In this document: positions 1 to 62,990 of the stretch, one piece after another
Numbering within the stretch: position 1 is the stretch's first letter
Layout: every line of letters starts with the position of its first letter
NCBI GenBank assembly: GCA_903825395.1
Contig: CAIKAF010000010.1
Location: forward strand, 16,700 to 80,699
Length of the DNA stretch: 64,000 nt
Source: an uncultured Flavobacteriales bacterium
GTDB lineage: Bacteria > Bacteroidota > Bacteroidia > CAIKAF01
Direction: 5' to 3'
The notes under the pieces: generated by a model
Told to the model about the DNA's origin: nothing
Database searches by the model: none
Seen by the model: only the letters and a program-made list of their open reading frames with translations
Program-made: the position numbers and the translations under genes

Positions 1-367
1 CGTTGGATTGAACCCCAATCCTCAATCCTTTGACCCTTCATTGGAGTGGGATTCTATTCCTGAGGATGCATTTGACAGCTTGGGATTTCATGCCTGCGAC
101 TGCAATTTCATGAGCTTAGAGAATGCGCCAGAGGCCTTTACCAAGATTTCTCCAAATCCAACCGACAAAGTATTGAATGTGCGTTCTGAGTTGACCATGC
201 AAACGATTTTGGTGAAAAACCTGGCGGGACAAGTGGTGCTGCAACCGCAGACAGTAAACGGGCTGCAAAGTCAAATTCAATTGGGCAATCTGCCTCCGGC
301 GATGTACCTGCTTGAAATATACTATCAAGGTGGCTTGGTGCGGAGTCAGCGGTTTTCCAAACGGTAA
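1..367 (+). CDS. 3' fragment of a secreted protein ending in a T9SS (Por) C-terminal sorting domain; 5' end lies outside the window
   Basis: The ORF is open to the window edge. The C-terminal ~70 aa (KVLNVRSEL...ILVKNLAGQVV...MYLLEIYYQGGLVRSQRFSK) has the typical beta-sandwich T9SS CTD pattern. Confidence 0.5.
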   Translation, partial: VGLNPNPQSFDPSLEWDSIPEDAFDSLGFHACDCNFMSLENAPEAFTKISPNPTDKVLNVRSELTMQTILVKNLAGQVVLQPQTVNGLQSQIQLGNLPPAMYLLEIYYQGGLVRSQRFSKR

Positions 368-373
368 TCGAAG

Positions 374-3178
374 ATGCGGCAATTTGCCCTCTGTTTGGTC
401 CTGATTCTTGCGGGAGCCCCGCCGGCTTCGCTTAAGGCCCAACAGCATGTGCTGAGTGGTCTGATTACAGATTCCATTTCGGGAGAGCCCCTGTTGGGTG
501 CGGCGGTGATGTATGCGCCAGGAAAAGGCGTTACAGCCGATTTGGAAGGCCGATTTTGGTTGAGTTTGCCGGCAGGAACCCATACCTTGGAAATTCGATT
601 TTTGGGCTATGATTCCAAAGAAATAAAGGTGCAAGTTCCAAGAGCCGCCGAATTGCACCTGCGCATGTCGGAATCAAAAGGCCATTCCTTACAGGAGTTT
701 CAACTGGTTTCTGATTTGGCGAAGCCGCGGGAAACGCCGGTGGCATACAGCAATGTATCTGCTCAACAGATTACAGAAAAATTAGGAGGACAGGACCTGC
801 CCATGCTGTTAAACGCCACGCCCGGTGTCTATGCTACCCAACAGGGCGGAGGCGATGGAGATGCTCGAATCAGCATCCGTGGATTCAGCGCCCAGAATGT
901 ACTGGTGATGGTGGACGGAGTGCCCATGAACGACATGTTCAATGGGCGAGTGTATTGGACCAATTGGTTTGGCTTGGATCAAATGACCCAAACCGTGCAG
1001 GTGCAACGTGGATTGGGGGCATCAAAACTCGCTATCCCGGCCATTGGTGGCACCATGAATATCATGACCAGGGGCATTCAGATGAATAAAAGCCTAAGCA
1101 TCAAGCAAGAACTGGGCAACGATCAGAATTTACGCACGGTTGTTTCCGGCTCTACAGGAAGGCTGAACGGCGATTGGAGCCTTCAGGCTGCCCTTTCTTA
1201 CAAAAACAACCGGGGATGGGTTGAAGGCCTGTCTTCGCAGATGTTTTTCTATTTCCTGAAAATCAACAAGGAAGTGAAAAACCATGCTTTTTCCTTTTCT
1301 GCTTTTGGGGCTCCACAGGAAAGTGGGCAACGGAGTTTTTTGTATGCACAACAAATTCAAGATTTAGATGCCAATCTGGCCCATTCCTTGGGCATTGACA
1401 CCAGCAATTCAATAGCAAGGGGGAATCGGTTTTATTCCGGTTGGAATGAGTTTGTGCGGACCCGTTCCGGCAACCGCCAACAGGATTCACTTTACGCAAG
1501 CGGAGCCATTACGCTGGAGCAGCACATGGCTCAAAACAACCTGCAGCGGGAACGCATGACCACCACGGTGAATGGATTTCATAAGCCGGTCATGACCTTT
1601 CAACACAGCTGGAAAGCCAGCAAAAACTGGTACCTAAAGAACATCGCCTATGCCAGCTTTGGATCGGGAGGAGGAAGCAGCATGGTGAACGATGGGGGGA
1701 GTACGATATCCGTAAACGACAGTACCGGCAAGATTAAATTACAGGAGCTGTATGACTTTAACATTTCTGGCCTGAAGACCGGTCAAGAAACCTTAGTCAG
1801 CAGGTATATTCTACGTAAAGACCATAACGACCATTCTTGGTATGGATTTTTAAGCACCGTAGAGGGGAAATTGCCCTTGGGGTTAACATTTTCAGGTGGT
1901 ATTGACGGCCGATACTACAATGGTCGAGTGTACAGCACCGTTTTAGATTTAATGGGCGGAGACGTTTTCAAAGTGCAAGGCCAACCCAATCAAAACCGGG
2001 CGGCAGAACCCTTGATTCGCGTGGGCGACACATTGCGTCAGCACATTGAACGCGATATTTTGTGGGGAGGAGCATTTGGTATGCTCGAATTTAAAGGAGA
2101 AAAACTAACGGCATTTGTAAACCTGAGCGGATCGGTAAGCGGATACAAACAATACAATCATTTTTTAAAACGTCAGCTGACGGTTGGCGACACGGTTTTA
2201 AATATTGGATTTTCCGACACCTTGCAGTTCCAGGGAAACATCTACACCCGAAGCAGCCCCGGTTTGCGCTCCAATTCTTCCGACCAAGTTTGGGCCTTTG
2301 GATATACCGTAAAGGGAGGAGCCAACTACAATCTGACCAAACGGCACAACGTGTATGCCAATGTAGGGTATTTTAGTCGGGTTCCCTATTTCACCTTTTT
2401 AATCACCACCGCCAACCGTTTGGTCAAAGAAACACTGAACGAGGAATTGTACAGTGCCGAACTGGGATATGGATATAGAAGCAAGAAATTTGCCCTGCAA
2501 GCGAATGCCTACTACACTCTTTGGAACAACAAGCCAACCGCTGTTTCATTTACCATAGACGGAGAAGCCGTTCGGGCCTTGGCCGGCGATATGGGAGCAC
2601 GGCACATGGGGCTGGAACTTGATTTCACTTGGAAGCCCTGGAAGTTTTTAAGCGTTGAAGGGATGGCTTCGTTGGGCGACTGGATTTGGAACAAGCAAGC
2701 TCGTGCTCAAATTATAGACGAAAGCGACGCCATCGTTGACGAAGTTGTATTTGATCCCAGAGGAGTAAAGGTCGGAGATGCCGCCCAGCATACCTACTCT
2801 CTGAGTACCCGCTGGATGCCCATAAAGCGCCTGTACATCATGCCTGAATTCCAGTATTTTAGTCAAAACTACGCCAACTTCGACCCATCGGTGTATCAGG
2901 TTACAGACATCCCCTCTGGTTTTGGGCCCAACTTGGGGCGACAAGCCTGGCGGATGCCCGATTATTATTTGTTGAATCTGTATGCGGGCTATCATTTTTA
3001 TATAAAAGACCGCAGAATTGATCTTCGGGGCAGCCTGTACAACATCACCGATTTGTCCTACATCAGCGATGCGAGCGACAACAATGCGGGCTCTGTTGAC
3101 ACCTTCAATGCCGCCTCGGCAACCGTATATGCCGGACTTGGATTTCGCTGGATGTTTTCTGTAACTGCTACATTTTAA
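374..3178 (+). CDS. TonB-dependent outer-membrane receptor (CarbopepD_reg N-terminal domain + plug + 22-strand barrel)
   Basis: Signal peptide MRQFALCLVLILAG. The LSGLITDSISGEPLLGAAVMY carboxypeptidase-regulatory-like motif, a plug region (DGVPMND) and a C-terminal aromatic barrel end (WMFSVTATF). 934 aa. Confidence 0.8.
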   Translation: MRQFALCLVLILAGAPPASLKAQQHVLSGLITDSISGEPLLGAAVMYAPGKGVTADLEGRFWLSLPAGTHTLEIRFLGYDSKEIKVQVPRAAELHLRMSESKGHSLQEFQLVSDLAKPRETPVAYSNVSAQQITEKLGGQDLPMLLNATPGVYATQQGGGDGDARISIRGFSAQNVLVMVDGVPMNDMFNGRVYWTNWFGLDQMTQTVQVQRGLGASKLAIPAIGGTMNIMTRGIQMNKSLSIKQELGNDQNLRTVVSGSTGRLNGDWSLQAALSYKNNRGWVEGLSSQMFFYFLKINKEVKNHAFSFSAFGAPQESGQRSFLYAQQIQDLDANLAHSLGIDTSNSIARGNRFYSGWNEFVRTRSGNRQQDSLYASGAITLEQHMAQNNLQRERMTTTVNGFHKPVMTFQHSWKASKNWYLKNIAYASFGSGGGSSMVNDGGSTISVNDSTGKIKLQELYDFNISGLKTGQETLVSRYILRKDHNDHSWYGFLSTVEGKLPLGLTFSGGIDGRYYNGRVYSTVLDLMGGDVFKVQGQPNQNRAAEPLIRVGDTLRQHIERDILWGGAFGMLEFKGEKLTAFVNLSGSVSGYKQYNHFLKRQLTVGDTVLNIGFSDTLQFQGNIYTRSSPGLRSNSSDQVWAFGYTVKGGANYNLTKRHNVYANVGYFSRVPYFTFLITTANRLVKETLNEELYSAELGYGYRSKKFALQANAYYTLWNNKPTAVSFTIDGEAVRALAGDMGARHMGLELDFTWKPWKFLSVEGMASLGDWIWNKQARAQIIDESDAIVDEVVFDPRGVKVGDAAQHTYSLSTRWMPIKRLYIMPEFQYFSQNYANFDPSVYQVTDIPSGFGPNLGRQAWRMPDYYLLNLYAGYHFYIKDRRIDLRGSLYNITDLSYISDASDNNAGSVDTFNAASATVYAGLGFRWMFSVTATF

Positions 3179-3181
3179 TGT

Positions 3182-3616
3182 ATGAGAATTTTCTTCGTTG
3201 TTGGCCTTCTGTTCTCCTTGTTTTCGGGGTGTGCCGAGGAAGTCGCCATGGAAAAATTACAAGGCCGCTGGGGGGCTCAATCGGTGGTACATCCCGATTC
3301 AAGCTGGACATTGAAGCTGGATACCTGTGGATTGGAAATCATGTTTTTTCCTTGCAGTCAGCCCTATACCGCCACGTGTTTCCTTGAAATGCGGGAGCAA
3401 GGTATGGGGGGGCATGTTTGGGTTGACACCCTTGGGTACACCATTAAAGGGGATGAATTGGCCTTTGTAGATGGGTCGGTGAAATCAAAATCTGTTTTTT
3501 CAAATACGCTTTTTAGGCTGCGGCGTTTTCGCTGGAGCATCCACGAGGAAATGCATTTGGATTTAAAGCGCATAGACACGTCGATTATCGAATTTCGCTT
3601 TTCAAAATTGGAATAG
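3182..3616 (+). CDS. hypothetical lipoprotein
   Basis: Lipoprotein-type signal (LLFSLFSGC). No recognisable domain. Starts 4 nt after the receptor stop. Confidence 0.4.
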   Translation: MRIFFVVGLLFSLFSGCAEEVAMEKLQGRWGAQSVVHPDSSWTLKLDTCGLEIMFFPCSQPYTATCFLEMREQGMGGHVWVDTLGYTIKGDELAFVDGSVKSKSVFSNTLFRLRRFRWSIHEEMHLDLKRIDTSIIEFRFSKLE

Positions 3617-3728
3617 TGTTTGTGCGGCAGGAATCTTCGGTAGCGTTCCAAGATTGGTTCCGGATTCTTCTTGCCGCTCTTGAGCAGGATCAATACAACC
3701 CATAAATTGCAGGTACTTTAATAGGCAT

Positions 3729-4421
3729 ATGTTGGCGAAGATGTTTTTGGACGTATTTAGGCTGTTTTTCTGCGGAGCTTGGCGAAGGGGGTTTGCCAAA
3801 TCTGTTTTTGCTTTCAGTTTACTGATGGTGGCGGGGCTGCCTCCGTTGAGGGCTCAGCCAATGAACGAGTCCTTTTTGCGGCAGGCCAAAGCCTATCCGG
3901 CAGAGGGAGGCTATGTTTGGTCAAGCACAGGATGTCCAGAGGCCCTGGTTCGGGGAACCGATACCTTGCTGCGCAAAAGCAAGGCGGGCACCTATTGCTC
4001 GGGGTTTACCTTTGCGGTTTTTTTCAAGGTCATGAACGACCGCGGCTCCTTCGATTCATTGAACATGGCCGATTTAAAAAGCATACAACAAGATTGGTAT
4101 GGGAATACGGCTCCTTCTGCCGAGCGGCAATGTGTATATGTTATGGAAAAATGGAATCTGGGATCGCAAATAGAAATGGAACATGCGCGCCCGGGAGATT
4201 TCATTCAATTTTGGAGGAACAACAATACCGGACATTCTGCCTTGTTTTTGGGCTGGATCAGGGATGAATCCGGCACAATTACCGGGTTAAAATATCGAAG
4301 TTCACAACGGCCTACCAATGGCATTGGGGAACGAACAGAACCGATAGGTTCCGCAAGCCGATCCCTAAACCCCAAACGAATTTATTTGGGTCGAATCGGG
4401 GCAGGGTTCCCGGCCCCGTAG
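3729..4421 (+). CDS. putative NlpC/P60-like (papain-fold) cysteine peptidase/amidase, secreted
   Basis: N-terminal hydrophobic segment. Cys motif TYCSGFTFAVF and a downstream GDFIQFW...GHSALFLGW resemble the NlpC/P60 Cys and His signature blocks. Motif-level only. Confidence 0.35.
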   Translation: MLAKMFLDVFRLFFCGAWRRGFAKSVFAFSLLMVAGLPPLRAQPMNESFLRQAKAYPAEGGYVWSSTGCPEALVRGTDTLLRKSKAGTYCSGFTFAVFFKVMNDRGSFDSLNMADLKSIQQDWYGNTAPSAERQCVYVMEKWNLGSQIEMEHARPGDFIQFWRNNNTGHSALFLGWIRDESGTITGLKYRSSQRPTNGIGERTEPIGSASRSLNPKRIYLGRIGAGFPAP

Positions 4422-4704
4422 AGCCAAGGCACGCCGTGGTTCTGCAAAAACGACGAATGGGGGAGGGGGCCCGTAGAGCCAAGGCACGCCTTGGCTCCCC
4501 CAAAAAACAACGAATGTGGCGGATCAGCAGAGCCAAGGCACGCCGTGGTTCTACAAAAACGACGAATGGGGGAGGGGGCCCGTAGAGCCAAGGCACGCCG
4601 TGGTTCCACAATGGCGGATTTTGTATTTCCGGTGAGCCAAGGCGCGCCGTGGTTCCACAATGGCGGATTTTGTATTTCCGGTGAGCCAAGGCATGCCTTG
4701 GCTC
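4421..4704. repeat. tandem array of 6 copies of a 22-bp (near-)palindromic unit GAGCCAAGGCACGCC(G/T)TGG(T/C)TC, spaced 49-55 bp
   Basis: Units start at 4421, 4476, 4530, 4585, 4634 and 4683. Units 2 and 6 are perfect 9+4+9 palindromes. The inter-unit spacers themselves repeat (spacer 1 = 3, spacer 4 = 5). Confidence 0.85.
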
Positions 4705-4730
4705 TACAAACGTTTCAATTTGTACCTTCA

Positions 4731-5294
4731 ATGCCTCAATTCATCCAAATGCTACGATGCATCCCTTTTGTTTTATTCAGCCTAATTACGGGGACGAGTG
4801 TTGCTCAAGGAAGCCTTCAGTTCAACCAGGTTTTGTGGCTCGATAACAGCAATAGCCCATATACCGTACCCGCGGGTAAGGTGTGGAAGATTACCCAAAA
4901 CAGCTATGGTACGCGTCATTTTTTGTCATCAACAAGCACGTTTTCTGTAACCTGGTCAAACACCAACCCCAACCCCTGCACAGGGGCCACTTCTGGAAGC
5001 TCTACGGCAATCGCAGTCAATTACAGCTCCTGCGGCGGAGTTAATTGGCCAACGGCGAATGGACACCAACTGGGGCAAGGTTCCGGACTTGTAACTTGGC
5101 TGCCCGCAGGAACCACAGTGGAGGTGCCCGCCACCCCTTGTTTTCATTCTGCTTCGGCAAACATTGGCTCAAATGTGGTGTACAGAGACAACCGCACCTC
5201 CTCATATATTTGCCAACCCCTTCAAATCAGCTCGGGTTCGTCGGTGCTGAATTCCAATGTGTTGTCTATTGTCGAATTTAACATTATCCCCTAA
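4731..5294 (+). CDS. hypothetical secreted protein (Ser/Thr/Asn-rich, beta-rich)
   Basis: Signal peptide (MLRCIPFVLFSLITGTSVAQG). Its stop overlaps the ATG of the next gene (TAATG), implying co-transcription. Confidence 0.45.
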   Translation: MPQFIQMLRCIPFVLFSLITGTSVAQGSLQFNQVLWLDNSNSPYTVPAGKVWKITQNSYGTRHFLSSTSTFSVTWSNTNPNPCTGATSGSSTAIAVNYSSCGGVNWPTANGHQLGQGSGLVTWLPAGTTVEVPATPCFHSASANIGSNVVYRDNRTSSYICQPLQISSGSSVLNSNVLSIVEFNIIP

Positions 5295-6085
5295 TGCGCA
5301 TCCTTTTCATTTGTGTTCTCACCGTTTTAAATTTGTCCGTATTTGCACAAGGCGTACGGATTGGGCCCAACCCTGCGCCAGCGGATTCCAGTGCCGGCCT
5401 TGATGTGGATTTTCCGGATCGGGGATTTTTACCCCCGCGCCTTAGCACCCAACAGCGCAATGCCATTGTGAACCCGGCGGCGGGATTGTTGGTATACAAT
5501 ACCAGTACGCAGTGCTTGGAATTGCATCTTCCACAGGGAGGTTGGCAGGCGGTATTGTGCGATTGCCAAAATCCTCCAAATCCAACCATTTCTGTCAACA
5601 GCACCTCGGCGGGCACCAACTCTTCCGTTGCATTTGCTGCGGCTCAGCCCGGAACCATCGCCTCGTATTCTTGGTCGTTCCAAAGCGGCAATCCCTCTAC
5701 TTCCAGTTCGGCCAATCCCAGTGTGTCTTGGTCGCAAGCCGGAACCTATTGGGTGTACCTTACCGCCTACAACAGCATTGGCTGCAGCGAAAAGGATTCC
5801 CTCCAAATGACCATCAGTGCCGGAATTACCGTGAATACCTTCAATTATTTTCAGCCCGGACAAGAGTACCTAATACGCACCAGTCAGTACGGTTGGCCCA
5901 TGACCGACCAGCAAACCGCCGATTGTTTTTGTCAGGCGATTGGCTACGCTTCGGCTCAGAGTTTTCAGATTGCCTATCCATCAACCACCAATTGTTTTGG
6001 ATACGAACCCAATTGCAATTACCATTCTACCTGGTGTAGCGGCACAACAAATCGCCACGTCATAACCACGGTAACCTGTCAATAA
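5294..6085 (+). CDS. secreted protein of a paralogous family: shared ~75-aa N-terminal module + PKD-like domain + Cys-rich C-terminus
   Basis: Signal peptide. The N-terminal block PAPADSSAGLDV...GFLPPRLSTQQRNAIVNPAAGLLVYNTSTQCLE is shared with the proteins at 49099 and 50419. It also has a PKD-like SYSWSF...SVSWSQAGTYWVYLTAYNSIGC block. Confidence 0.55.
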   Translation: MRILFICVLTVLNLSVFAQGVRIGPNPAPADSSAGLDVDFPDRGFLPPRLSTQQRNAIVNPAAGLLVYNTSTQCLELHLPQGGWQAVLCDCQNPPNPTISVNSTSAGTNSSVAFAAAQPGTIASYSWSFQSGNPSTSSSANPSVSWSQAGTYWVYLTAYNSIGCSEKDSLQMTISAGITVNTFNYFQPGQEYLIRTSQYGWPMTDQQTADCFCQAIGYASAQSFQIAYPSTTNCFGYEPNCNYHSTWCSGTTNRHVITTVTCQ

Positions 6086-6104
6086 AATTCAGATATTCCA
6101 AGGT

Positions 6105-7469
6105 ATGCACATTCATTTTATAGCCATCGGTGGAGCCGCTATGCACACCTTGGCTCTGGCACTCAAAAAAGAAGGCCATGAAATTTCCGGGTCGGACGAT
6201 GAAATTTTTGAGCCCTCTCGCTCTCGATTGGCGGCCGCCAACCTGCTTCCCGAGCAAGAAGGGTGGTTCCCGGAACGGATACATGCCGGCATTGATGTTG
6301 TGGTGTTGGGGATGCATGCCAAGGCCGACAATCCGGAGTTGATTCGGGCGGAAGCCTTAGGTTTGACCATTCAATCGTATCCGGCCTTTTTTAAAGAATA
6401 TACCAAACATAAAACCAGAGTGGTAGTGGGCGGTAGCCATGGAAAAACCACCACCACATCCATGATCATACATGGTCTGCAGGCGCAAGGGGTTCCGTTT
6501 GACTGTCTGGTTGGAGCAAGCATTCCCGGTATTGAGTCTCCGGTGATGTTCGACCCCAACGCCACCTTGGCCATCATTGAAGGAGATGAATATTTGGCTT
6601 CTGCTCGTCAGCCCATTCCGAAGTTTCATGTCTATCAAGGTCATATTGGTGTCATTACCGGAATCGCCTGGGATCATGTAAATGTGTTTAAAACCATGGC
6701 CGATTACCAACGGCAGTTCGAATTGTTCATTGATACCTTGGTGCCCAACGGCCATCTTATTTATTGCCTGGAAGATTCGATTTTAAAAGAAATGGTGGAA
6801 CAGCATCCCCGAACCGACATACAGCGGCACGGATATTCTACCTTGGCCTACACCTACCAACAGCATACGGCCATCGTTCAGCATCAGGGCAGAGAATATC
6901 CGGTTGGAATTCAAGGTCGCCACAACATGCAAAATCTAGCGGCAGCATGCGTGGTGAATCGATTGCTGGGGGGCTCGGAAGAGAAATTTTTGCAATCCAT
7001 GGTGAATTTTCGTGGCGCCTCAAAGCGAATGGAAGTTTGGGGGCAAAAGCCACAGCACAACTTCTTGGCCATCAAGGATTTTGCCCATAGTCCTTCCAAG
7101 GTGAAAGCAACAGTGCAGGCGGTGCGCGAGGCCTACCCGAACCACCGTTTGCTCGCCATGCTCGAATTGCACACCTACAGCAGTCTGAGTCGGGATTTTT
7201 TGCCGGAATATCAGGGGGTGTTTCAGGGGGCCGACGACTTGGCTGTATTGTATGATCCACATGCCTTGGTCATCAAGCGACTGCCCGTCTTAAATGCGCA
7301 GGAAGTGGCAGATTCTATGGGGATTTCGAGCGGGAAGGTGTTTTCCGATCCCACCGTTTGGGCCAAATTTGTGCAGAGCCAGCCACGGGAAGACTCGGTT
7401 TTTCTGTGCATGAGCAGTGGAAATTGGGGCGCGGTTGATATGGCGGGGTGTATGGATATTGATGGTTGA
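6105..7469 (+). CDS. mpl: Mur-ligase family enzyme, Mpl-like (UDP-N-acetylmuramate:L-Ala-gamma-D-Glu-meso-DAP ligase) or MurC-like
   Basis: N-terminus IHFIAIGGAAMHTLALAL. The GGSHGKTTTTSMI P-loop is typical of Mur ligases. ~454 aa fits Mpl. Confidence 0.65.
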   Translation: MHIHFIAIGGAAMHTLALALKKEGHEISGSDDEIFEPSRSRLAAANLLPEQEGWFPERIHAGIDVVVLGMHAKADNPELIRAEALGLTIQSYPAFFKEYTKHKTRVVVGGSHGKTTTTSMIIHGLQAQGVPFDCLVGASIPGIESPVMFDPNATLAIIEGDEYLASARQPIPKFHVYQGHIGVITGIAWDHVNVFKTMADYQRQFELFIDTLVPNGHLIYCLEDSILKEMVEQHPRTDIQRHGYSTLAYTYQQHTAIVQHQGREYPVGIQGRHNMQNLAAACVVNRLLGGSEEKFLQSMVNFRGASKRMEVWGQKPQHNFLAIKDFAHSPSKVKATVQAVREAYPNHRLLAMLELHTYSSLSRDFLPEYQGVFQGADDLAVLYDPHALVIKRLPVLNAQEVADSMGISSGKVFSDPTVWAKFVQSQPREDSVFLCMSSGNWGAVDMAGCMDIDG

Positions 7470-7475
7470 GGGGTT

Positions 7476-7796
7476 GCAGCCCTTTGCGGTAAAAAACAGG
7501 TTCAGGCATTACTGCCAACTTTTACCACAGAGGCCGCCAAGGGAGCCGCAAAGTTTCACAAAGGTTTGGGGCGGAATGAGGGCGCACGCGTTTTGACTAC
7601 ATCCCCTCTGCGCCCTTTGCGCCGACATTGCGCCCTTTGCGGTAAAAATCCCTGGTTCAGGAATTTCTGCCAATTTTTACCACAGAGGCCGCCACGGCAG
7701 CCGCAAAGTTTCACAAAGGTTTGGGGTGGAACGAGAGCGCCCTCGTTTTGCCCACATCCCCTCTGCGCACTTTGCGCCGACATTGCGCCCTTTGCG
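7476..7796 (+). repeat. dispersed repeat family 1: two tandem ~155-bp units (7489-7641, 7642-7796) plus a partial leading fragment
   Basis: Unit ...ccacagaggccgccaagggagccgcaaagtttcacaaaggtttgggg...ctctgcgccctttgcgccgacattgcgccctttgcggtaaaaa. Recurs at 8555, 27355(-), 27915(-) and 37783. Confidence 0.8.
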
Positions 7797-7858
7797 GTAA
7801 AAAACGAAAGACCCCCAATTTTTGGTCTCAAGAGGATTTTTACTCTAGGAACTTCAGA

Positions 7859-8242
7859 TTACCAAAATAAAGGGATATTGTATTTCCCAATTATTTCATC
7901 TTTCGACACCAGAGTTAAACCATCGCTCTTACTCTGTGCAATTAGCAACCGGTCAAAGGGGTCCCGATGAATGAAATCTAAATTTGACACAATCATGGCA
8001 TGTTCAAATCGGATAGGAAGAACCTCAAATCCATTGCCCTCAATAAGTTGAATGAACGTATTAAAACCCGAAACAAATTTTATCCTTTCCAAGCTTACTT
8101 TAATAGCGATTTCCCAAATTGAGGCGATACTAACAAGTTTAATGTTTGTGTCTGACTCAATGGCCCTTCTTGCCGGAGTTGAAAGTTGCTCATCTCCATT
8201 TAAAAACCAGATAAGCGCGTGGGTATCAAGAAGTAGATTCAC
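7859..8242 (-). CDS. vapC: PIN-domain toxin, VapC family
   Basis: MNLLLDTHALIWFLNGDEQLS...LVSIASIWEIAIK, a classic VapC PIN N-terminus with acidic residues. 127 aa. 4-nt overlap with the upstream small ORF. Confidence 0.8.
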   Translation of the reverse strand: MNLLLDTHALIWFLNGDEQLSTPARRAIESDTNIKLVSIASIWEIAIKVSLERIKFVSGFNTFIQLIEGNGFEVLPIRFEHAMIVSNLDFIHRDPFDRLLIAQSKSDGLTLVSKDEIIGKYNIPLFW

Positions 8243-8445
8243 CCAATATGCTCTTTGAAATCATCGAGGGGAGCATCAAAATCGGGTGACATATAAATCT
8301 GGCCTTTTGCACAACCAAATTTTGGGGACTTCTGCTTTTTCCCTTTCTCGCCCCGTTTAAGCAAAGAGTCGATGAAATCTACAACTTCCAATTTTAATTC
8401 TTCTGGAAGAATGCTAACTTTTCTATACCACTGAGCATAATTCAT
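8239..8445 (-). CDS. antitoxin (DUF2281-like) partnered with VapC
   Basis: 68-aa ORF immediately upstream of vapC with overlap. MNYAQWYRKVSILPEELKLEVVDFIDSLLKR resembles DUF2281-type antitoxins. Confidence 0.6.
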   Translation of the reverse strand: MNYAQWYRKVSILPEELKLEVVDFIDSLLKRGEKGKKQKSPKFGCAKGQIYMSPDFDAPLDDFKEHIG

Positions 8446-8554
8446 GGCATTGTTTTAAACAAAGATACGAAACCTTTATGGGCTTTTCCAGGAGGGTTTT
8501 AATAGGATTCGGCATCCTATTCAGGGTGAAACTAAATCAAGGCATTCAGGTTTG

Positions 8555-8752
8555 TTTTACCACAAAGCCCACCAAGGGAGCCGCAAAGTTTCACAAAGGT
8601 TTGGGGTGGAATGAGGGCGCACGCGTTTTGACTACATCCCCTCTGCGCCCTTTGCGCCGACATTGCGCCCGTTGCGGTAAAAAAACCTGGTTCAGGAATT
8701 TCTGCCAATTTTTACCACAGAGGCAGCCAAGGCAGCCGCAAAGTTTCACAAA
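8555..8752 (+). repeat. dispersed repeat family 1, ~1.3 units
   Basis: Near-identical to 7489-7796 (accaagggagccgcaaagtttcacaaaggtttggggtggaatgagggcgcacgcg...). With 7476-7796 it forms direct repeats that flank the vapBC cassette. Confidence 0.8.
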
Positions 8753-8771
8753 GAGAGAATTGAAATCCCCC

Positions 8772-11228
8772 TCAATCCCCCACCTGATACCTCTGCTTCA
8801 TTTTCATTATCCGATCTTCCAACTGTTCCGTACTGAACTTTTCCCGAATCCGCTCCACCATAATCGGAAAAGCAAAAGGCGATGGCCGGCGGGTCTTACA
8901 AATCTGCCATTCCAAGCCCGAAAGCCGCTGCAAAGCCTCATGCAACCGCTGATGCTCCAACTGAAAATCCAACACCTCCTGCCGAGCCTGCCTCAACAAA
9001 ATATGATTGGGTTCCGATTCCCGAAACACATCAAAAAACAGCCGAGAACTGGCCTGCAAATGCCGATCCTTCTTGAATTTCCCGGGGTATCCCTGAAACA
9101 CCAAGCCCGCAATCCGTGCAATATCCCGAAACCGCCGACTGGCCAATTCTGTGGTGTTTAACCCGGCTTCAATATCTCCCAACAGCCCCGCCACCGACAA
9201 CAAGCCCTGCTCCCGAATCCATTCCGCCGAAATGTAGGTGTCGCTCAACAGCTCAAACCCGTAATCGTTCATCGAAATCGAAAACGACACCGGAAAATGC
9301 CGCGAAATTCGGTGGGCCAGCACCTGCGACATGCCCTCGTGCACAAAGCGGCCTTCAAAAGGAAAGAAGAACAAATGATGCCCCTCACGCGAGGCAAACT
9401 CCTCCACCAAAAACCGATGAGCCACCGGCAGGGCGCTGATGTTGGCCTGCACCTCCAGCAAAGGCTGAAGCTTTTCCCGTTCTGCCGAAGGCGTTTCCGA
9501 AGCGGGCAGAGACAACTCCCGCCGCAATCCCGCGCCCAATTCCGACGACAAAGGCATGCGGCCCCCTTGCCAGGAAGGCACGGCCCCCTTGCTGCCCTTT
9601 GCTGCCCGCACCTGCACCGCCATATCGCGGATGCGCAGCAGCTCCAGCAAGCGCCCCGCCAGCCAAAACGCATCGCCGGGCACCAGTTTCGCCACAAACC
9701 ATTCCTCCACATGCCCAATCAAGCCTCCGCCCTGATACGAAACCGGCAGCATGGCCTCGCTTTGAATCGTGCCAATGTTCATGCGGTGGCGCTGGGCAAT
9801 TCCTTTCCGCAGAATCCTCAACTTCCCATCTTCCCACTCGGCCTTTTGAAACTCCTCGTAATGCTGAAGGCTGGGGCCGCCGCTTAAAATAAACTGAATG
9901 CACTCCGCAAAGGCCTCCTCTTCCATGTGTTCAAAACAGGCGGTTTGCCGAATTTCCTGCCAAATGTGCTGCGGCACAAAGCCTTCCGACACCGCCAGGC
10001 TGCACAAGTATTGAATCAGCACATCGTAGCACAGGCGGTAGGGCTCAATGGGTTCCAGCGCACCTTGGTTCATGGCTTCGCGCAAGGCCGCCCCTTCCAG
10101 AATTTCAAGGGCATGGGTGGGCACAAAGAAAATGCGCGAGGCCTTTCCGGGTTGGTGTCCGGAGCGGCCGGCGCGCTGCACAAAGCGGGCAATCCCTTTC
10201 GGACCGCCCACCTGAATCACCACATCTACCGGCCTAAAATCCACGCCCAGATCCAGGCTGCTGGTGCACACCACCACCTTTAATTTCCCTTCGTGCAGGG
10301 CATCTTCCACCCAGAATCGGAGTTCTTTTGAAATTGAGCCGTGGTGCATGGCCATTTGGCCCGCCAAATCGGGTTGGCGCAGCAGCAATTCCCGGTACCA
10401 GATTTCGGCTTGAGCCCGGGTATTGGTAAACAGCAGGCAGCTGTTGGCCTGATGAATCACGGGCAGAACCAGGTCCAGAAGCCGAATGCCTAAGTGTCCG
10501 GCCCAGGGGAAGGAATCAATCTGTTCCGGCAGAATGCTGATCACTTCCCAGGATTTTTTCAGGTCGGCATGGATGAGTCGGGCGCTGGGAAACAGTTCAG
10601 GGCCCAGCAGAAAATAGGCCGCATCGCTGGGGGCGCTCAGCGTTGCCGAAATGCCCCAGACCTGCAGGTTTGGCAGCAGCGCCCGCAGGCGGCTGTGCGC
10701 CAGTTCCCAGAGCACGGCGCGCTTGGTACCCAGCAGGGCATGCCATTCGTCCACCACCACCGTTTGCAGGGCCGCGAAAAAGTCCGGATAGCCGGGGGTG
10801 GCCAGGAGCAGGTGCAGGCTTTCGGGGGTAGTAATCAGCACATCGGGTGGCGATTTCCAGAGTTTCCGGCGTTCGGCGGGACTGCTATCGCCGGTGCGCA
10901 GGCCCACGCTCAGCTGGGGAGCCAAATCCGGCAGCAGCGCCAGCACGGCGGCTTCCATTTCGCGGGCCAGGGCCCGTACGGGGCTAATCCAAATCACCTT
11001 AAGGCCAGATTTGGGCGATTGTGCGGCTTGAAGCAGGGCGGGAATAAACAGCGCATACGTCTTGCCGCTTCCGGTGGGGGCGGTCAGCAGGCCGTTGCAG
11101 CCCTCGTACACCGCTTGCCAGGCATCAAGTTGAAAGGCTTGGGGCTGCCAGCCGCGTTGGGCCATCCATGCCCGGCCCAGGTCCAGGGCCGAGGCAGAGC
11201 TGCTGAGTACATGGCCGCGGTCGCGCAT
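8772..11228 (-). CDS. DEAD/DEAH-box ATP-dependent helicase, Lhr-like (ligase-associated DNA-damage-response DEXH helicase family)
   Basis: Walker A LLTAPTGSGKTYA and a DEWH box (VVVDEWHALLG). 818 aa with a long C-terminal extension typical of Lhr-core helicases. The gene is markedly GC-rich. Confidence 0.6.
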   Translation of the reverse strand: MRDRGHVLSSSASALDLGRAWMAQRGWQPQAFQLDAWQAVYEGCNGLLTAPTGSGKTYALFIPALLQAAQSPKSGLKVIWISPVRALAREMEAAVLALLPDLAPQLSVGLRTGDSSPAERRKLWKSPPDVLITTPESLHLLLATPGYPDFFAALQTVVVDEWHALLGTKRAVLWELAHSRLRALLPNLQVWGISATLSAPSDAAYFLLGPELFPSARLIHADLKKSWEVISILPEQIDSFPWAGHLGIRLLDLVLPVIHQANSCLLFTNTRAQAEIWYRELLLRQPDLAGQMAMHHGSISKELRFWVEDALHEGKLKVVVCTSSLDLGVDFRPVDVVIQVGGPKGIARFVQRAGRSGHQPGKASRIFFVPTHALEILEGAALREAMNQGALEPIEPYRLCYDVLIQYLCSLAVSEGFVPQHIWQEIRQTACFEHMEEEAFAECIQFILSGGPSLQHYEEFQKAEWEDGKLRILRKGIAQRHRMNIGTIQSEAMLPVSYQGGGLIGHVEEWFVAKLVPGDAFWLAGRLLELLRIRDMAVQVRAAKGSKGAVPSWQGGRMPLSSELGAGLRRELSLPASETPSAEREKLQPLLEVQANISALPVAHRFLVEEFASREGHHLFFFPFEGRFVHEGMSQVLAHRISRHFPVSFSISMNDYGFELLSDTYISAEWIREQGLLSVAGLLGDIEAGLNTTELASRRFRDIARIAGLVFQGYPGKFKKDRHLQASSRLFFDVFRESEPNHILLRQARQEVLDFQLEHQRLHEALQRLSGLEWQICKTRRPSPFAFPIMVERIREKFSTEQLEDRIMKMKQRYQVGD

Positions 11229-11312
11229 GCAAACTAAACGAGGAAACAGGGGATTTGGTTTTAACCTCCCAGAGAATGGTCATCGCGGAAAGGAGAAGAC
11301 GTTGGATAATTT

Positions 11313-11460
11313 GGGCGGCTGCGGGCTTTCACCGGTAGTCCGCGGTGGCCGGGCGGGCTGTTGCCGGGCTGCGGTGGCTCCCAAGGTCGCCTCCTCGCCG
11401 CGGCACAGCTGCCGCCGGCCCCCTTGCGGGCAACCGGGTTCAATCCCTGCCGCGGGCGGC
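11313..11460 (+). repeat. GC-rich dispersed element, copy A (somewhat diverged)
   Basis: gggcggctgcgggctttcaccggtagtccgcggtggcc...ctcccaaggtcgcctcc...gggcaaccgggttcaatccctgccgcgggc. Homologous to the copies at 39831, 44437, 56876, 58428, 62991 and 63271. Confidence 0.8.
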
Positions 11461-11683
11461 GTGGATAGAAAAGGTAAGGGAAAGGGCCTTTGGAGCCCCA
11501 TTTTTAATTCCAACAAAATCAAGTATTTATACTTTAAACTGAAAATCATTTTCAGTATAATAGCCTGTATATCAAAATGTTGTTAAAAAAATCTTGCTTT
11601 TGAATCGAAAATTTGGATATCTTTAAATGCCGCATTGAGTTGGTTGATGCTTAAAGTACAACTACATATATCTAAACCCTTGC

Positions 11684-11812
11684 GATACAGGCCTTGAACT
11701 CTTTGAAGGAGTTCAGGCCTATATCGAGTACTACCACAGTAAAAAGCATCAGGGTACCAGGAGCACTCCTAATGAGGCATATTCTAAATTCAAAAAACTC
11801 TCAGCCGCTTGA
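11684..11812 (+). pseudogene. 3'-terminal remnant of an IS3-family (rve integrase) transposase orfB
   Basis: Translation ...ELFEGVQAYIEYYHSKKHQGTRSTPNEAYSKFKKLSAA* matches the conserved C-terminal tail of rve integrases (yIeyYNxxRxHxxLgyxTPxEay). Upstream homology is lost and a stop sits at 11645, so it is truncated. Confidence 0.5.
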
Positions 11813-11841
11813 TAAAAATCTTAACTTAGCAATGCCAACTT

Positions 11842-12420
11842 TTGGTCCAACAATTAGGGAGTATTACAGTTTTATTTGTATTGGTTTATACCTTGCAAAA
11901 CAAGATGATTGGAGAACTTGGAGAAAAAGGCAGGGAACTAGACCGAATTAAGGAAATTGAAAAAACAGTTAACAATATTGATACTGCTTATTTTAAGTAT
12001 GATGCAGAGAACAAAAAGCATATTCTAAATATGCATTTCTTGTTTCCAAAAGGCAGCTATGATATCTCTAAAATCGTGCCTGACAAACGGGCTGACTTGC
12101 TTAAAGCGGGTAACGTAATTAAACAACTCATTTTAAAATATCCGGAGGAAGAAAACATTAAATATCTAATAGTAGTAGAAGGACAAGCATCAAAAGACAA
12201 TTGGGTGGGTAATGACGACCTGAGTTACCACAGAGCGCAATCGCTAATTAAGTTATGGGAGCAAAACAATATTGGACTTGACAAATTAAAGAACTGTGAA
12301 ATAATTGTTGCAGGAAGTGGCGAGAAAGGTATTCCAAGGACACAACCAGACATTGGTAACGCTAACCAAAGATTTTTAATAACTATCGTTCCTAAAATCG
12401 GCCAAATGAAAAATAAATAG
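11842..12420 (+). CDS. OmpA/MotB-like peptidoglycan-binding protein with N-terminal TM helix and coiled coil, in an AT-rich islet
   Basis: TM segment ITVLFVLVYTL. The C-terminal YLIVVEGQASKDNWVGNDDLSYHRAQSLIKLW...GLDKL...IIVAGSGEKGIPRT fits the OmpA_C pattern (N..LS..RA ... G.GE..P). GC is about 33% against roughly 50% for the window. Confidence 0.55.
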   Translation: MVQQLGSITVLFVLVYTLQNKMIGELGEKGRELDRIKEIEKTVNNIDTAYFKYDAENKKHILNMHFLFPKGSYDISKIVPDKRADLLKAGNVIKQLILKYPEEENIKYLIVVEGQASKDNWVGNDDLSYHRAQSLIKLWEQNNIGLDKLKNCEIIVAGSGEKGIPRTQPDIGNANQRFLITIVPKIGQMKNK

Positions 12421-12431
12421 CCAACACATTT

Positions 12432-12494
12432 GGTGGCACTTTTTCAAAATAGGACAAGCCCAACTCTAAAGCCCAGTTTTGAAAAAGTGCCACC
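12432..12494. terminator. perfect 18-bp inverted repeat (ggtggcactttttcaaaa ... ttttgaaaaagtgccacc) between convergent genes; candidate bidirectional terminator
   Basis: Arms at 12432-12449 and 12477-12494 with a 27-nt loop. It is flanked by A/T runs on both strands and sits between the ompA-like gene (+) and the beta-barrel gene (-). Confidence 0.4.
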
Positions 12495-12531
12495 TAGCCA
12501 ACGCACCAATACAGAGCAACATGTGCCCCCC

Positions 12532-27354: not shown

Positions 27355-27509
27355 GACTTGAAGTTTTTTTTGCCGCGAAGGACACCATGTCGGCACAAAG
27401 TGCACAGAGGGAGTGGTGTTATACCGAGAGTGTGCAGGAGTTCCGAGGCTCCTTTGCGAACATTGCGGCTTCCTTTGCGGCCATTGCGGTAAAAAATGGC
27501 GGTTAGGCC
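27355..27509 (-). repeat. dispersed repeat family 1, reverse orientation
   Basis: The reverse complement reads ttttttaccgcaatggccgcaaaggaagccgcaatgttcgcaaaggagcc...ccctctgtgcactttgtgccgacat, matching the 37783-37920 copy. Confidence 0.7.
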
Positions 27510-27602
27510 TTGATGGGTTTTTCACGGAAAAGAACACTTAAGCGACAACATTCAAAAATCCAAACCAGAGAAAGGCCTGTTTCCCCTCATATTTTATATT
27601 TG

Positions 27603-27639
27603 GGCGTAAATTTTACAATAGCATTGTAAAATTTACGCC
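27603..27639. promoter_or_regulatory. perfect 17-bp/3-nt-loop palindrome ggcgtaaattttacaat-agc-attgtaaaatttacgcc in the ~880-bp leader upstream of the pyrimidine-catabolism cluster; operator or terminator
   Basis: Perfect inverted repeat, read directly. Followed by attttatgtg. Sits between the two family-1 repeat copies. Confidence 0.5.
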
Positions 27640-27914
27640 ATTTTATGTGATACAACAAAAATCAGCCTTCTTGCTGGGGGAAATATCTTCATGATTGTAT
27701 TGATCATTGATTGCTATTCCGTAGCTCAAAACACCAGGACCCCGTGGGGGTGATATTATTGTAGGTGGCATTATTGTGGGATACATGATAATATTTGGAA
27801 TAGAAAATTTGCCTCACTCCCCCTCAGCGCCTTTTTCGGCTCCTTCATGGTAAAAATCCCATTAAAATAGCGAGAGTATTTTTTACCATTTCAATTCGGC
27901 GCAACGGGCACGGA

Positions 27915-28004
27915 GGGTGTGTTGTGTCGCTAGAGGGCTCGTGGCTCCTTTGCGAACATTGCGGCTTCCTTTGCGGCCTTTGTGTTAAAAATTGGCGGTT
28001 AGGC
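27915..28004 (-). repeat. dispersed repeat family 1, partial copy (reverse orientation)
   Basis: gctcgtggctcctttgcgaacattgcggcttcctttgcggcc...ggcggttaggcc is near-identical to 27440-27509. Confidence 0.6.
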
Positions 28005-28259
28005 CTATTAATTGCTTTTGATGGAGTCGAGCTGTTAAAACCCGAAAAGCGCTATAAATGGATGTAAACACTCCTACCTCCCCGATTCCCCCCGCCGGGT
28101 AAGATTTCATAGATTTTTGGAAGACCCTAAAAAACACTGATTTACAGATACTTAACCGATTCGCTCCGGCAAAGCCCGTTGCGTTTCAGTTCTTTTGTAA
28201 TAACTTGTCCTTTTAAAACCTTAAACCGCGGCGAAACCCCGCCAAATTTGTACAAAACT

Positions 28260-37753: not shown

Positions 37754-37782
37754 TTTTTGAGTGTGGTTAAGGCTTGACTGCC

Positions 37783-37920
37783 TTTTTTTACCACCAAGGC
37801 CGCCAAGGGAGCCGCAATGTTCCCAAAGGAGCCTCCAAACTCTTGCACACCCTCGCTGTAACTACATTCCCTCTGTGCCCTTTGCGCCGACATTGAGTCC
37901 TTTGTGGTAAAAAACAGGTT
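37783..37920 (+). repeat. dispersed repeat family 1
   Basis: tttttaccaccaaggccgccaagggagccgcaatgttcccaaaggagcc...ctctgtgccctttgcgccgacattgagtcctttgtggtaaaaaacagg. Lies between convergent preA and the PNP gene. Confidence 0.7.
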
Positions 37921-39830: not shown

Positions 39831-39985
39831 CGCCGCCCGCGGCAGGGATTGAAGAGGGTAGGACGCCAGTGTGCCGGAGCCTGGCCCGCGAGGCGCGGAG
39901 GCGACCTTGGGAGCCCCCGCAAGCCCGCTGGGCCAGCCTTCCGGCACCGGCGGACTAGCCCTGAAAGCCCGCCCGCCGCCCCCCC
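39831..39985 (-). repeat. GC-rich dispersed element, copy B (reverse orientation)
   Basis: cccgcggcagggattgaag...gcggaggcgaccttgggagcccccgcaagcccgctgggccagcc...gaaagcccgcccgccgccccc. Confidence 0.8.
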
Positions 39986-44436: not shown

Positions 44437-44586
44437 TCGGGCGGCAGCCGGGCTTTCAGGGGTAGTCTGCCCTTGCCGAAAGGCGGGCCCAGCGGGCTTG
44501 CGGGGGCTCCTAAAGTCGCCTCCGCGCCGCGCGGGCCCGGCTTCGGCAACGGGCAGAGCTACCCTCTTCAATCCCTGCCGCGGGCC
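44437..44586 (+). repeat. GC-rich dispersed element, copy C
   Basis: gggcggcagccgggctttcaggggtagtc...gcgggcccagcgggcttgcgggggctcctaaagtcgcctccgcgccgcgcgggcccggc...caatccctgccgcgggcc. Overlaps the last ~6 codons of menD. Confidence 0.8.
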
Positions 44587-46220
44587 ACCTCATTCCATGA
44601 CGCCGCTCGCCGTGCTTGATAGGTGTTCCATGCCGCCGTATTTTCCCGCGCATCGGTTTGCAGTTCAATGACTCCCGTGCGAATTCCATCCCAAATTTTT
44701 AGGCAATCTGCCAACTCCTGAACGCATCCACAACAGGCATACCGAAGCCCAAACCGCTGGGCAAACCAGGCAAAGGTGTCGGTTCGGGCAGCCACAAAAT
44801 GCCGTTCTACATCAGCAGATGCCGCGGGAGGCCCCGGCAGATTTCTAAATATTTGACCCCCAAAATTATTGAGGATCACTACCAATACATTGGTTGGGAA
44901 AGGCTGGCTCAGCAGGGCATTGTTGTCGTAGTTCATGGCCAAATCGCCAATCAAAACCACATGTTGGCGCAGGGGGTCGGCCAAAGCCTGTCCCACTGCA
45001 GTAGATAAGGTGCCGTCAATTCCACTCAAACCTCTGTTGCACCACAGTTCAATTCCCTCAGGCAGCATAGTTTGAAGCGCATCTACATAGCGTACACTCA
45101 TGCTGTTTGCCACATGCATTACCGAGTCGGCCTGCAGTTGCTTCAATATGAAGGCAACCGCGGAAACATCCGACCACGTTTCATCCCATTCTTCAATGTC
45201 GGCCATTGGCAAAACCATGGGCTCAAGGGGTTGGGGTAAGGAGTTGAAAAACGCCGCCACCGAACCCATCCAAAACGGTTGCTGTGGTAAAAATCGATAT
45301 CCCGGCTGTTCAAACAAATCCACATGCAAGGTCTTCTGACCGGGGAACCGAGAAAAGAAGGACTCCCATCGCCGTGGAACCATAGAACCTCCCACTGAAA
45401 CAAGCACGTGGGGAAGACCTTCCTCAGTTGGACGGCTCCACAACCAAAATGGGAAATCGCTGCGCGACGAAAACGACCACAAGTGCGAGGACACATCCCC
45501 CCAAAACGCCCCACCTTTGGCAATAAATTCTCGGATAAAAGGCTGCAGTTCCAGCGCAGATTTTCGATCCATATGGCCGGCCAAAATGGCTATTCTGGGT
45601 CGAGCCGGCACATTCAACTCGGCCAAAGAACGAATGCCTTGGCCAAGATCAATCGCTGGCCCCTCTTGAGTTAAGACCAAAGGTTCAGAGCCCGGATGCA
45701 CCGTACTTCCATCGTCTGCCTCATACAAGGGCTCTTCAAACCGAATGTTCAGGTGTACCGGCCCGGGTTTCCCTTGGCACAACACATCCCAGGTTTGATC
45801 CGGATGGCCGGGATCTAGATTTGAAACCAGAGTCCGACCTTTAATAAATCCCTGAAAAAAAGATTCCTGCCATAGGGTTTGCCCCTCATGTGCAGGCACG
45901 TACCGCGAAGGCCTGTCGGCAGTAATGACCACCAATCCAACTCCCTGATGATAGGCCTCGGCTATTGCTGGGCCATAATTAATTCCAGCCGAACCGCTGC
46001 TGCAAATTAAGCCTACCGGGCGCTGCCATTGCCGGGCAAGCCCAAGGGCAATAAACCCCGCTGAACGCTCATCGGGATGAACAACCATCCGAACACCGGG
46101 CAAGGATTCTAAGGCCAGAATTAAAGGCGCAGAACGAGAACCTGGCGAAACCACAAAATCGCGCAACCCCTTTTCAAAAAGAGCCTGAATCCAAAACCGG
46201 GCCAGTGCTGCTGCGTTCAT
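44568..46220 (-). CDS. menD: 2-succinyl-5-enolpyruvyl-6-hydroxy-3-cyclohexene-1-carboxylate synthase (ThDP enzyme, menaquinone pathway)
   Basis: N-terminus FVVSPGSRSAPL...HPDERSAGFIALG...GPAIAEAY typical of MenD. ThDP-binding GDLA...N motif. 550 aa. Confidence 0.8.
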   Translation of the reverse strand: MNAAALARFWIQALFEKGLRDFVVSPGSRSAPLILALESLPGVRMVVHPDERSAGFIALGLARQWQRPVGLICSSGSAGINYGPAIAEAYHQGVGLVVITADRPSRYVPAHEGQTLWQESFFQGFIKGRTLVSNLDPGHPDQTWDVLCQGKPGPVHLNIRFEEPLYEADDGSTVHPGSEPLVLTQEGPAIDLGQGIRSLAELNVPARPRIAILAGHMDRKSALELQPFIREFIAKGGAFWGDVSSHLWSFSSRSDFPFWLWSRPTEEGLPHVLVSVGGSMVPRRWESFFSRFPGQKTLHVDLFEQPGYRFLPQQPFWMGSVAAFFNSLPQPLEPMVLPMADIEEWDETWSDVSAVAFILKQLQADSVMHVANSMSVRYVDALQTMLPEGIELWCNRGLSGIDGTLSTAVGQALADPLRQHVVLIGDLAMNYDNNALLSQPFPTNVLVVILNNFGGQIFRNLPGPPAASADVERHFVAARTDTFAWFAQRFGLRYACCGCVQELADCLKIWDGIRTGVIELQTDARENTAAWNTYQARRAASWNEVARGRD

Positions 46221-56751: not shown

Positions 56752-56875
56752 AGGGTTGGCAGGTTAGTGAGGTCGATTTCCATCTAGGTCGCAAAATATT
56801 GATTTTTCCTTTCTTATCCCCCTCCATTTTTTAGGGTGAATCATTGATTTGGATAGGTTCTTTTCTGTTTTTTCT

Positions 56876-57025
56876 TGGGCGGCTGCGGGCTTTCGTGGGT
56901 AGTCCGCGGTGGGCGGAAGTCTGGCCCAGCGGGCTTGCGGGGGCTCCCAAGGTCGCCTCCGCGCCACGCGGGCCAGGCTCCGCCCACCTTGCGGGCAACC
57001 CTACTCAATCCCTGCCGCAGGGCCC
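56876..57025 (+). repeat. GC-rich dispersed element, copy D
   Basis: gggcggctgcgggctttcgtgggtagtccgcggtgggcggaagtctggcccagcgggcttgcgggggctcccaaggtcgcctccgcgccacgcgggccaggctcc...caatccctgccgcagggcc. Confidence 0.8.
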
Positions 57026-58381: not shown

Positions 58382-58427
58382 CCCCCAATCTGCAGTTTTT
58401 CCCTACTCAGTATTAGGCATGATGTGG

Positions 58428-62966: not shown

Positions 62967-62990
62967 GTTGAGGAATCTGGTTTTTTTAAT

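Follow-up and report, generated by a model that had tools for sequence, protein, structure and literature searches.

A VapBC toxin-antitoxin (TA) operon in an uncultured Flavobacteriales bacterium lies between two arrays of a ~155-nt repeat, referred to here as family A, where the convergent genes mpl and lhr would otherwise meet. The locus was examined in a 64,000-nt stretch of contig CAIKAF010000010.1 (the window). The arrays probably act as substrates for homologous recombination, leading to deletion, to gain or loss of repeat units and to exchange of flanking genes, and the repeats themselves do not appear to transpose the cassette. The repeats would provide portable homology, with vapBC embedded in one array beside the 3' end of lhr. 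Recombination or slippage between copies would alter unit number (one or two units are seen to the left of the cassette); recombination between direct copies would delete the intervening DNA, to give the state of contig L045, which is without 7566-8753 and keeps a hybrid tail-linker-arm; and arrays at different loci would swap flanking DNA (recA for mpl in a strain designated J, and possibly sucA in a Caspian Sea metagenome-assembled genome, MAG). Differences between strains in unit number, in the presence of the segment and in the left-hand gene are thus suggested to arise by homologous recombination or slippage between copies. The feature is ordinary, repeat-driven genome variation and represents no new class of element. 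Its interest lies in being a base-resolved natural example of a species-specific interspersed repeat shaping a genome, with unit-number variation, loss of a 1.2-kb TA segment and flanking-gene replacement at one array among close strains. Moreover, the TA module has three fates in a single population, namely intact, toxin nonsense-mutated and deleted.

The empty site and strain variation around vapBC

Arrays at 7474-7806 and 8535-8753 bracket vapBC, and every unit is in the forward orientation. A first-pass annotation, made from the sequence alone, had described direct copies of one repeat family on both sides of the TA pair, and this description holds with Tandem Repeats Finder, BLAST and a profile search. 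The array delimited by Tandem Repeats Finder spans 7474-7805, with a period of 155, 2.2 copies and 88% matches, and 7520-7718 recurs at 8555-8753 with 95% identity in both a repeat search and BLAST. The layout of the arrays was derived from an nhmmer profile built on nine units. In alignments, each unit consists of a 22-nt linker, a left arm of ~45 nt, a variable core and a right arm of ~45 nt complementary to the left. The left array opens with a "tail" at 7474-7497 (+), the final ~24 nt of a right arm (GCAGCCCTTTGCGGTAAAAAAC), which begins 4 nt past the mpl stop codon and is found in all strains, the empty site included. Unit 1 follows at 7499-7651 (+; nhmmer 152 bits, and alignments), with its linker at ~7499-7519, left arm at 7520-7565, core at ~7566-7605 and right arm at ~7606-7650, and is succeeded by unit 2 at 7654-7806 (+; 149 bits). 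To the right of the cassette, unit 3 at 8536-8686 (+; 142 bits) carries a variant linker, ATCAAGGCATTCAGGTTTG, and the partial unit 4, or "head", at 8689-8753 (+; profile search) comprises linker and left arm only. The head is truncated at CACAAAG/AGAGAATTG and ends 18 nt before the lhr stop codon.

The evidence for deletion comes from a conspecific strain, E, known from a Flavobacteriales MAG contig (L045, GCA_049463115.1) that represents the window's Mpl cluster. In L045, mpl and lhr converge over 112 nt, vapBC is absent and one partial copy of the repeat lies between the two genes, which is the empty site with a single repeat that had been predicted in the first pass. The spacer consists of tail, linker and left arm as far as CACAAAG and then continues with AGAGAATTGAA... 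as in the window, and thus corresponds to window 7474-7565 fused to 8754; identity with the window is 98.6-99.1% in the flanks. By alignment, the segment present in the window and absent from L045 is 1188 nt long (7566-8753). Its ends lie at core 1 and at the unit 4 head, and linker plus left arm bounds it on both sides as direct copies (7499-7565 and 8689-8753). The L045 junction reflects real molecules and not a collapsed assembly, because unit-1-specific bases are joined there to the lhr flank, and this pairing is missing from the window genome. Similarly, the window arrangement is not a misassembly, since a stretch of 1362 bases that begins at the end of mpl and reaches 30 bases into lhr is base-identical in four assemblies (L001/L006, L003/L010, L007 and L008); L002/L009 also matches this stretch up to its contig end.

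Strain J is represented by L030/L031 (a 62-kb JGI contig and an ENA assembly) and by two shorter contigs (L033/L034), and has the order recA, tail, units, vapC, vapB, units, lhr. This cassette arrangement is found mid-contig in the 62-kb contigs of two assemblies. Window 7520-11521, which runs from the left array through lhr and a repeat of a second family (family B, below), is 95% identical to strain J overall and 99% identical downstream. Both cassette junctions and the junction between head and lhr are identical in the two; the left neighbour of the left array has changed from mpl to recA and the lhr-side junction has not. The CACAAAG/AGAGAATTG junction is common to the window, L045 and L030, and the spacer junction GGTAAAAAAC/GAAAGACC is identical in the window, L030/L024, L033 and L027, which are all the TA-carrying contigs read there. 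The cassette is ~97-98% identical between window and strain J and lhr is 98.3% identical, and divergence of the cassette to about the same extent as lhr argues for vertical descent.

The nucleotide identity of lhr is 98.94% between the window and E, 98.29% between the window and J and 98.21% between E and J, corresponding to 26 differing sites for the first pair and 42-44 for each of these strains against J. The patterns at variable lhr sites are distributed accordingly, with 30 grouping the window with E, 14 grouping the window with J and 12 grouping E with J. Because the window and E are closest in lhr, yet the more distant J has the cassette at the same junction, the simplest history is that L045 lost the cassette by deletion, as far as sequence comparison can suggest.

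Unit number and crossover position also vary. The left array holds two units in the window and L030, and one unit in L033 and in L027, the latter in the mpl context. Crossover sites appear to lie at the end of the right arm, within CCTTTGCGGTAAAAA, in L027 and in the left arm in L045 and L033, and such differing positions within the unit point to general homology-driven exchange rather than to a fixed site. In a recA-context sub-strain, seen in two assemblies (L033 at ~2738-3121, and L034), vapC has a premature stop (R78 to stop) with vapB intact; the toxin is decaying in part of the population. In the Caspian MAG contig JAQCBQ010000046.1 (L013 1-930), mpl, tail, two units and a partial unit are followed by a sucA-like start (MDPFSYLSNASPESVEALYQAYL...). 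This mpl-array-sucA join (sucA, 2-oxoglutarate dehydrogenase E1) may be a third mpl-array arrangement or a chimeric join across the repeat; the latter is raised because a near-identical population, L027, has mpl-unit-vapBC.

The TA pair had been placed at 7859-8445 between mpl and a helicase gene in the first pass, and Pfam and NCBIfam agree. On the minus strand, vapC (7859-8242) encodes a toxin of 127 aa with a PIN domain over residues 4-120 (Pfam PF01850, E = 2e-15), and vapB (8239-8445) encodes an antitoxin of 68 aa, assigned to DUF2281 by Pfam (E = 2.8e-16) and to NCBIfam NF050009 TA_VapB (equivalog) with 78.5 bits against a cut-off of 60. The vapB gene is directly upstream of vapC in one operon, with a 4-nt overlap at 8239-8242. 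VapC shares at most 49% identity with plasmid genes annotated as VapC, and a sequence search of PDB with VapC gave no match. The left non-coding spacer of the cassette (7807-7858, 39.6% GC) has a weak 5-bp hairpin at 7809-7828. The right spacer (8446-8534), read directly as sequence, is a putative control region for vapBC. Its minus strand shows a TAnnTTTG-type box, TATCTTTG (reverse complement of 8460-8467), ~14 nt upstream of the ATG; the spacer also holds a perfect 8-bp palindrome, AATAGGAT-n5-ATCCTATT, at 8501-8521, and terminates in tail-like GGGTGAAAC. The box is a likely vapBC promoter element and the palindrome a candidate operator. As predicted from these features, vapBC is a self-contained and complete type II TA operon. 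Its GC content of 38.7%, compared with 51.7% for the whole window, is AT-rich and foreign in base composition, and the module was probably acquired horizontally.

Apart from the interposed vapBC, the flanking genes are convergent. The left gene is a Mur ligase (mpl/murC-like; 6105-7469, +) with Pfam Mur_ligase, Mur_ligase_M and Mur_ligase_C domains and with NCBIfam murC and mpl matches that both fall below cut-off. The right gene, lhr (8772-11228, -), encodes a ligase-associated DEXH-box helicase (Lhr-like) supported by Pfam and by NCBIfam TIGR04121 (1042 bits, cut-off 850).

Anatomy and distribution of the family A repeat

In alignments, the left arm begins TTTTTACC (TTTTTACCACAGAGG...) and the right arm finishes GGTAAAAA (...CCTTTGCGGTAAAAA). 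The core is of at least two unrelated types, with shortened forms in addition, and the linker has several variants and is inverted in one case. Pairing in the two arm helices reaches 88-89% of cells, compared with 37-50% overall when partners are slid, and 15-17 of 17 copies retain the terminal TTTTACC/GGTAAAA pairs. Both arms have CRCARAGG or CCTYTGYG motifs ~10 or 20 nt apart. The 12-mer GCGCCCTTTGCG, previously counted three times per unit, occurs twice, 20 nt apart. At every locus, whether solo or array, there are n cores and n+1 linkers, and the outer arms are truncated or decayed, forming a tail at one end of the locus and a head at the opposite end. Each locus therefore holds internal direct repeats and can expand and contract head-to-tail.

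Folding of single units had been recommended to assess hairpin and terminator potential, and the outcome was divided. Unit 2 forms a near-perfect long hairpin on both strands (-57 to -67 kcal/mol, z ~ -5), but terminator potential was not found: between 7300 and 8900, both strands included, there are no sites with hairpin plus T-run, compared with 2.5 expected from shuffles, the A-run/T-run of the unit sits inside the stem and not after it, and copies occur in either orientation. Explicit pair counting detected no covariation above shuffles, and the RNAalifold consensus keeps only the 7-bp ends, on which grounds a structured-RNA interpretation was dropped; the palindrome is instead conserved as sequence, as would be expected of a young repeat. 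No Rfam family reached its gathering score in the window, and searching 7300-11700 by E-value produced only a chance microRNA-hairpin match (E = 0.3). ARAGORN found no tRNA or tmRNA.

The family recurs elsewhere in the window in diverged copies that are 70-76% identical to unit 1 by BLAST and profile search. Recurrences reported at 27355(-), 27915(-) and 37783(+) in the first pass are real, with boundaries now refined. A full-length copy at 27364-27514 (-; nhmmer 143 bits) is downstream of an ABC transporter gene, a copy at 27878-28007 (-; 82 bits) has its core partly deleted, and a solo copy at 37765-37916, extended by a second linker to 37935 (+; 152 bits), fills the gap between convergent dihydropyrimidine-dehydrogenase-like and nucleoside phosphorylase genes. 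A 20-mer from the repeat unit has four matches, with 0.02 expected by chance. There are four family A loci in 64 kb, or about one per 16 kb of window. The arrays nearly fill their intergenic gaps, lying 4-24 nt from gene 3' ends at most loci, and run both ways relative to the neighbouring genes.

Distribution was assessed by scanning one genome from each GTDB species for exact patterns and by a second scan of JGI metagenomes. Among GTDB species, family A was found in the Caspian Sea "Bacteroidetes bacterium" MAG alone, with seven matches, and this fragmentary MAG belongs to the same species because it shares synteny with window 1-7803, at 96-97% identity. The metagenome scan yielded six loci, all of this species, giving 13 loci across both scans, and no autonomous element was seen in these pattern scans of genome and metagenome contigs. 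The nearest other species (Mpl 69-72%, Lhr 80% and recA DNA 74-81% identical) have no family A copy in the contigs read. Family A is confined to one uncultured Flavobacteriales species, in which it forms an interspersed, non-coding palindromic element of ~155 nt, of the MITE (miniature inverted-repeat transposable element)/ERIC/BIME kind. In the relatives with 69-72% Mpl and 80% Lhr identity, mpl and lhr are not adjacent, and hence these genomes are unusable as empty sites. A 9289-nt ENA contig (ERZ22067504, P0121) encodes an Lhr 98% identical to that of the window, followed by 355 nt and a convergent gene with a TMEM260_N domain, with no vapBC.

Whether other copies of the family flank cargo had been posed as a question in the first pass, and the answer is largely negative. 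Eight other loci were examined in related contigs and none does so, and enclosed DNA is present at only one of 12 further family A loci, where two same-orientation copies (27364-28007) enclose a 357-nt AT-rich (38% GC), non-coding segment (27521-27877). Within this segment, at 27603-27639, lies a perfect inverted repeat of 16 bp (GGCGTAAATTTTACAAT-AGC-ATTGTAAAATTTACGCC), and the segment could represent a regulatory region or what is left of another cargo.

Probable recombination between copies and its alternatives

Several points weigh against recombination between repeat copies as the explanation. The direction of deletion depends on 26 as opposed to 42-44 differences in one gene of a probably recombining population, and the same product would result if a circle bearing a repeat were inserted by a single crossover. 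The genomes used for comparison are all metagenome assemblies, none of them closed, and the Caspian mpl-array-sucA contig could be chimeric. Imperfect direct repeats, GGTAAAAAAC and GGTGAAAC, are present at the two cassette junctions and might be what remains of a target duplication made by some unrelated insertion mechanism, but are only suggestive. In addition, selection on the hairpin has no covariation support.

The alternative that survives best, although it is unlikely, reverses the history: L045 would be ancestral and the 1188-nt segment of units and vapBC would have entered by a single homologous crossover (Campbell-type) linking the resident repeat with a copy carried on circular or incoming DNA, with the repeats as a landing pad that moves cargo. 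The same product is expected, with direct copies of linker and arm around the extra DNA, the cassette is AT-rich and foreign-looking, and vapBC is missing beside lhr or recA in the 72-81% relatives with extending contigs as well as in the contig with the 98% identical Lhr. However, strain J is farther than L045 from the window in lhr and carries the cassette with an lhr-side junction identical to that of the window, and the divergence of the cassette is about equal to that of lhr, both of which favour deletion from a cassette-bearing ancestor.

It is more doubtful still that the units are RNA-level elements (terminators, mRNA stabilisers or small RNAs) selected at gene ends, with their position around vapBC incidental. 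The placement of copies close to gene 3' ends at most loci and the ability of units to form long hairpins are in keeping with such a role, and roles of this type have been ascribed to REP and ERIC elements (PMC3733652). Nevertheless, a terminator role, which had been proposed in the first pass, is contradicted by the lack of any terminator-like site between 7300 and 8900. The lack of covariation above shuffles, of any Rfam match beyond a chance hairpin and of consistent orientation relative to transcription also speaks against an RNA-level function, as does absence of the family from the contigs read of sister species that have the same genes.

Movement of vapBC as cargo of a composite transposon, made of two MITE copies served by a trans-acting transposase, is very improbable, and with it the earlier suggestion that a MITE mobilised the TA module. 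Family A has several attributes of a MITE, being a small non-coding element with terminal inverted repeats, of which 7-8 bp are nearly invariant, and many dispersed copies; copies of the same family bound the cassette, and non-autonomous composites of a broadly similar kind, such as TIMEs, have been described (PMC4133298). Against this, the empty site keeps a repeat copy and is not a clean target, which is the signature of direct-repeat recombination and not of composite-transposon excision or insertion. Just one flank differs between the mpl and recA contexts, only the left neighbour having changed in strain J, and the flanking copies are direct and not inverted. No clear target-site duplication surrounds either the units or the whole segment; loci end in truncated arms, with no consistent direct repeat outside the units. 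Transposase or integrase domains are absent from the ~45 long open reading frames (ORFs) of the window and from the genes called on those conspecific contigs that were read, and other copies are without cargo.

Equally little weight can be given to the units being sites of a recombinase encoded elsewhere, in a non-canonical, integron-like system by which vapBC would have been captured and from L045 excised. Least probable of all is that the units are attC-like sites of a dedicated site-specific recombinase and vapBC an integron-like cassette whose excision leaves a hybrid site, since the likeness of ~130-155-nt imperfect palindromes in direct orientation is superficial and, for all that the TA cassette has its own putative promoter and is lost precisely to leave one site, the R'' (RYYYAAC) and R' (GTTRRRY) boxes are absent by eye from unit ends, which read GTTTTTTACC and GGTAAAAAAC, the linker sequences GTTCAGG/GTTAAGG do not fit GTTRRRY, the window yielded neither an integron integrase nor a tyrosine recombinase, most units are solo or head-to-tail without cassettes between them, the units are scattered over the genome, and crossover positions vary within the unit. 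Homologous recombination between repeat copies is the preferred reading, and carries a caution for annotation that a repeat-flanked TA module is not necessarily a transposon. For metagenome assembly, it accounts for contigs that break or recombine at these repeats.

Other repeats in the window and relation to known systems

A second dispersed repeat, family B, is GC-rich and ~150 nt long, and has seven copies in the window, at 11307-11457(+), 39834-39981(-), 44439-44587(+), 56875-57021(+), 58425-58572(-), 62987-63137(+) and 63269-63416(-). It is also present at L018 4826-4970. The family B consensus folds into one long hairpin of 54 pairs, 12 of which have compensatory double changes among the seven copies, and one end, GGTTCAATCCCTGCCGC, resembles a tRNA T-arm. 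Copies are 84% identical where Mpl is only 72% identical, and the family is therefore far better conserved than family A. It corresponds to no Rfam family, with spurious plant microRNA hairpin matches only. Beside a family B repeat, strain J DNA (L030 10997-12463) differs from window 11522-12525 in having a PhdYeFM/YoeB TA pair and small ORFs, where the window instead carries an ORF of 171-192 aa with no annotation; the locus is a second variable islet in which a TA pair adjoins a repeat. The window also holds two minisatellites, at 4415-4709 and 60485-60676, one with a 55/49-nt period and the other with a 42-nt period and 4.6 copies. The first overlaps a predicted ORF of assembly-dependent length (242 aa, compared with 181 aa in L007). 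The second abuts fabD, and relatives of 81% identity have fabD near recA, making this another synteny breakpoint at a repeat.

ERIC (IRU) sequences of enterobacteria and the Correia/NEMIS elements of Neisseria are non-coding imperfect palindromes of 100-160 nt, dispersed between genes and restricted to particular clades. Family A resembles them in size, palindromic structure, intergenic dispersal in both orientations and association with genome plasticity. It differs in its head-to-tail arrays, shared linkers and truncated outer arms, and showed no Correia-type duplication of a TA target site; no relationship in sequence to these elements is expected. With BIMEs (REP palindromes in mosaic clusters; REP overview in PMC3733652) and pneumococcal BOX elements, family A has in common modular arms, alternative cores and alternative or inverted linkers, and a module number that varies between strains. 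However, its modules of ~155 nt are far longer than the 20-40-nt REPs, their ends (TTTTTACC/GGTAAAAA) are without a GTAG or CGTC tag, and no Y1 (RAYT) transposase was seen in the window.

The TA cassettes of Vibrio superintegrons are flanked by VCR/attC repeats, and chromosomal TA loci are removed by deletions between direct repeats or insertion sequences. TA modules have been proposed to counter-select such deletions. The locus described here is similar to superintegron TA cassettes in that the TA pair is located between same-orientation repeats of ~120-150 nt and its polymorphic loss leaves one repeat, but differs in having no attC core sites, no integron integrase in the window and crossover points that vary. 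The operon itself is like other VapBC type II systems in its PIN toxin, small upstream antitoxin, 4-nt overlap and promoter-region palindrome, and unlike those compared in that its vapB encodes a DUF2281-type antitoxin.

In TIMEs, paired miniature elements bring about composite mobilisation (PMC4133298), which is a poor fit to the junction evidence at the vapBC locus. The closest described analogue of family A in the Bacteroidota is the BrickBuilt MITE of Porphyromonas gingivalis, a species-specific, strictly intergenic, MITE-like element with tandem repeats, small inverted-repeat ends and strain-variable forms (PMC4596501). The internal repeat of BrickBuilt is 23 nt long and has no spacers, whereas in family A it is the whole 155-nt palindrome that is repeated.

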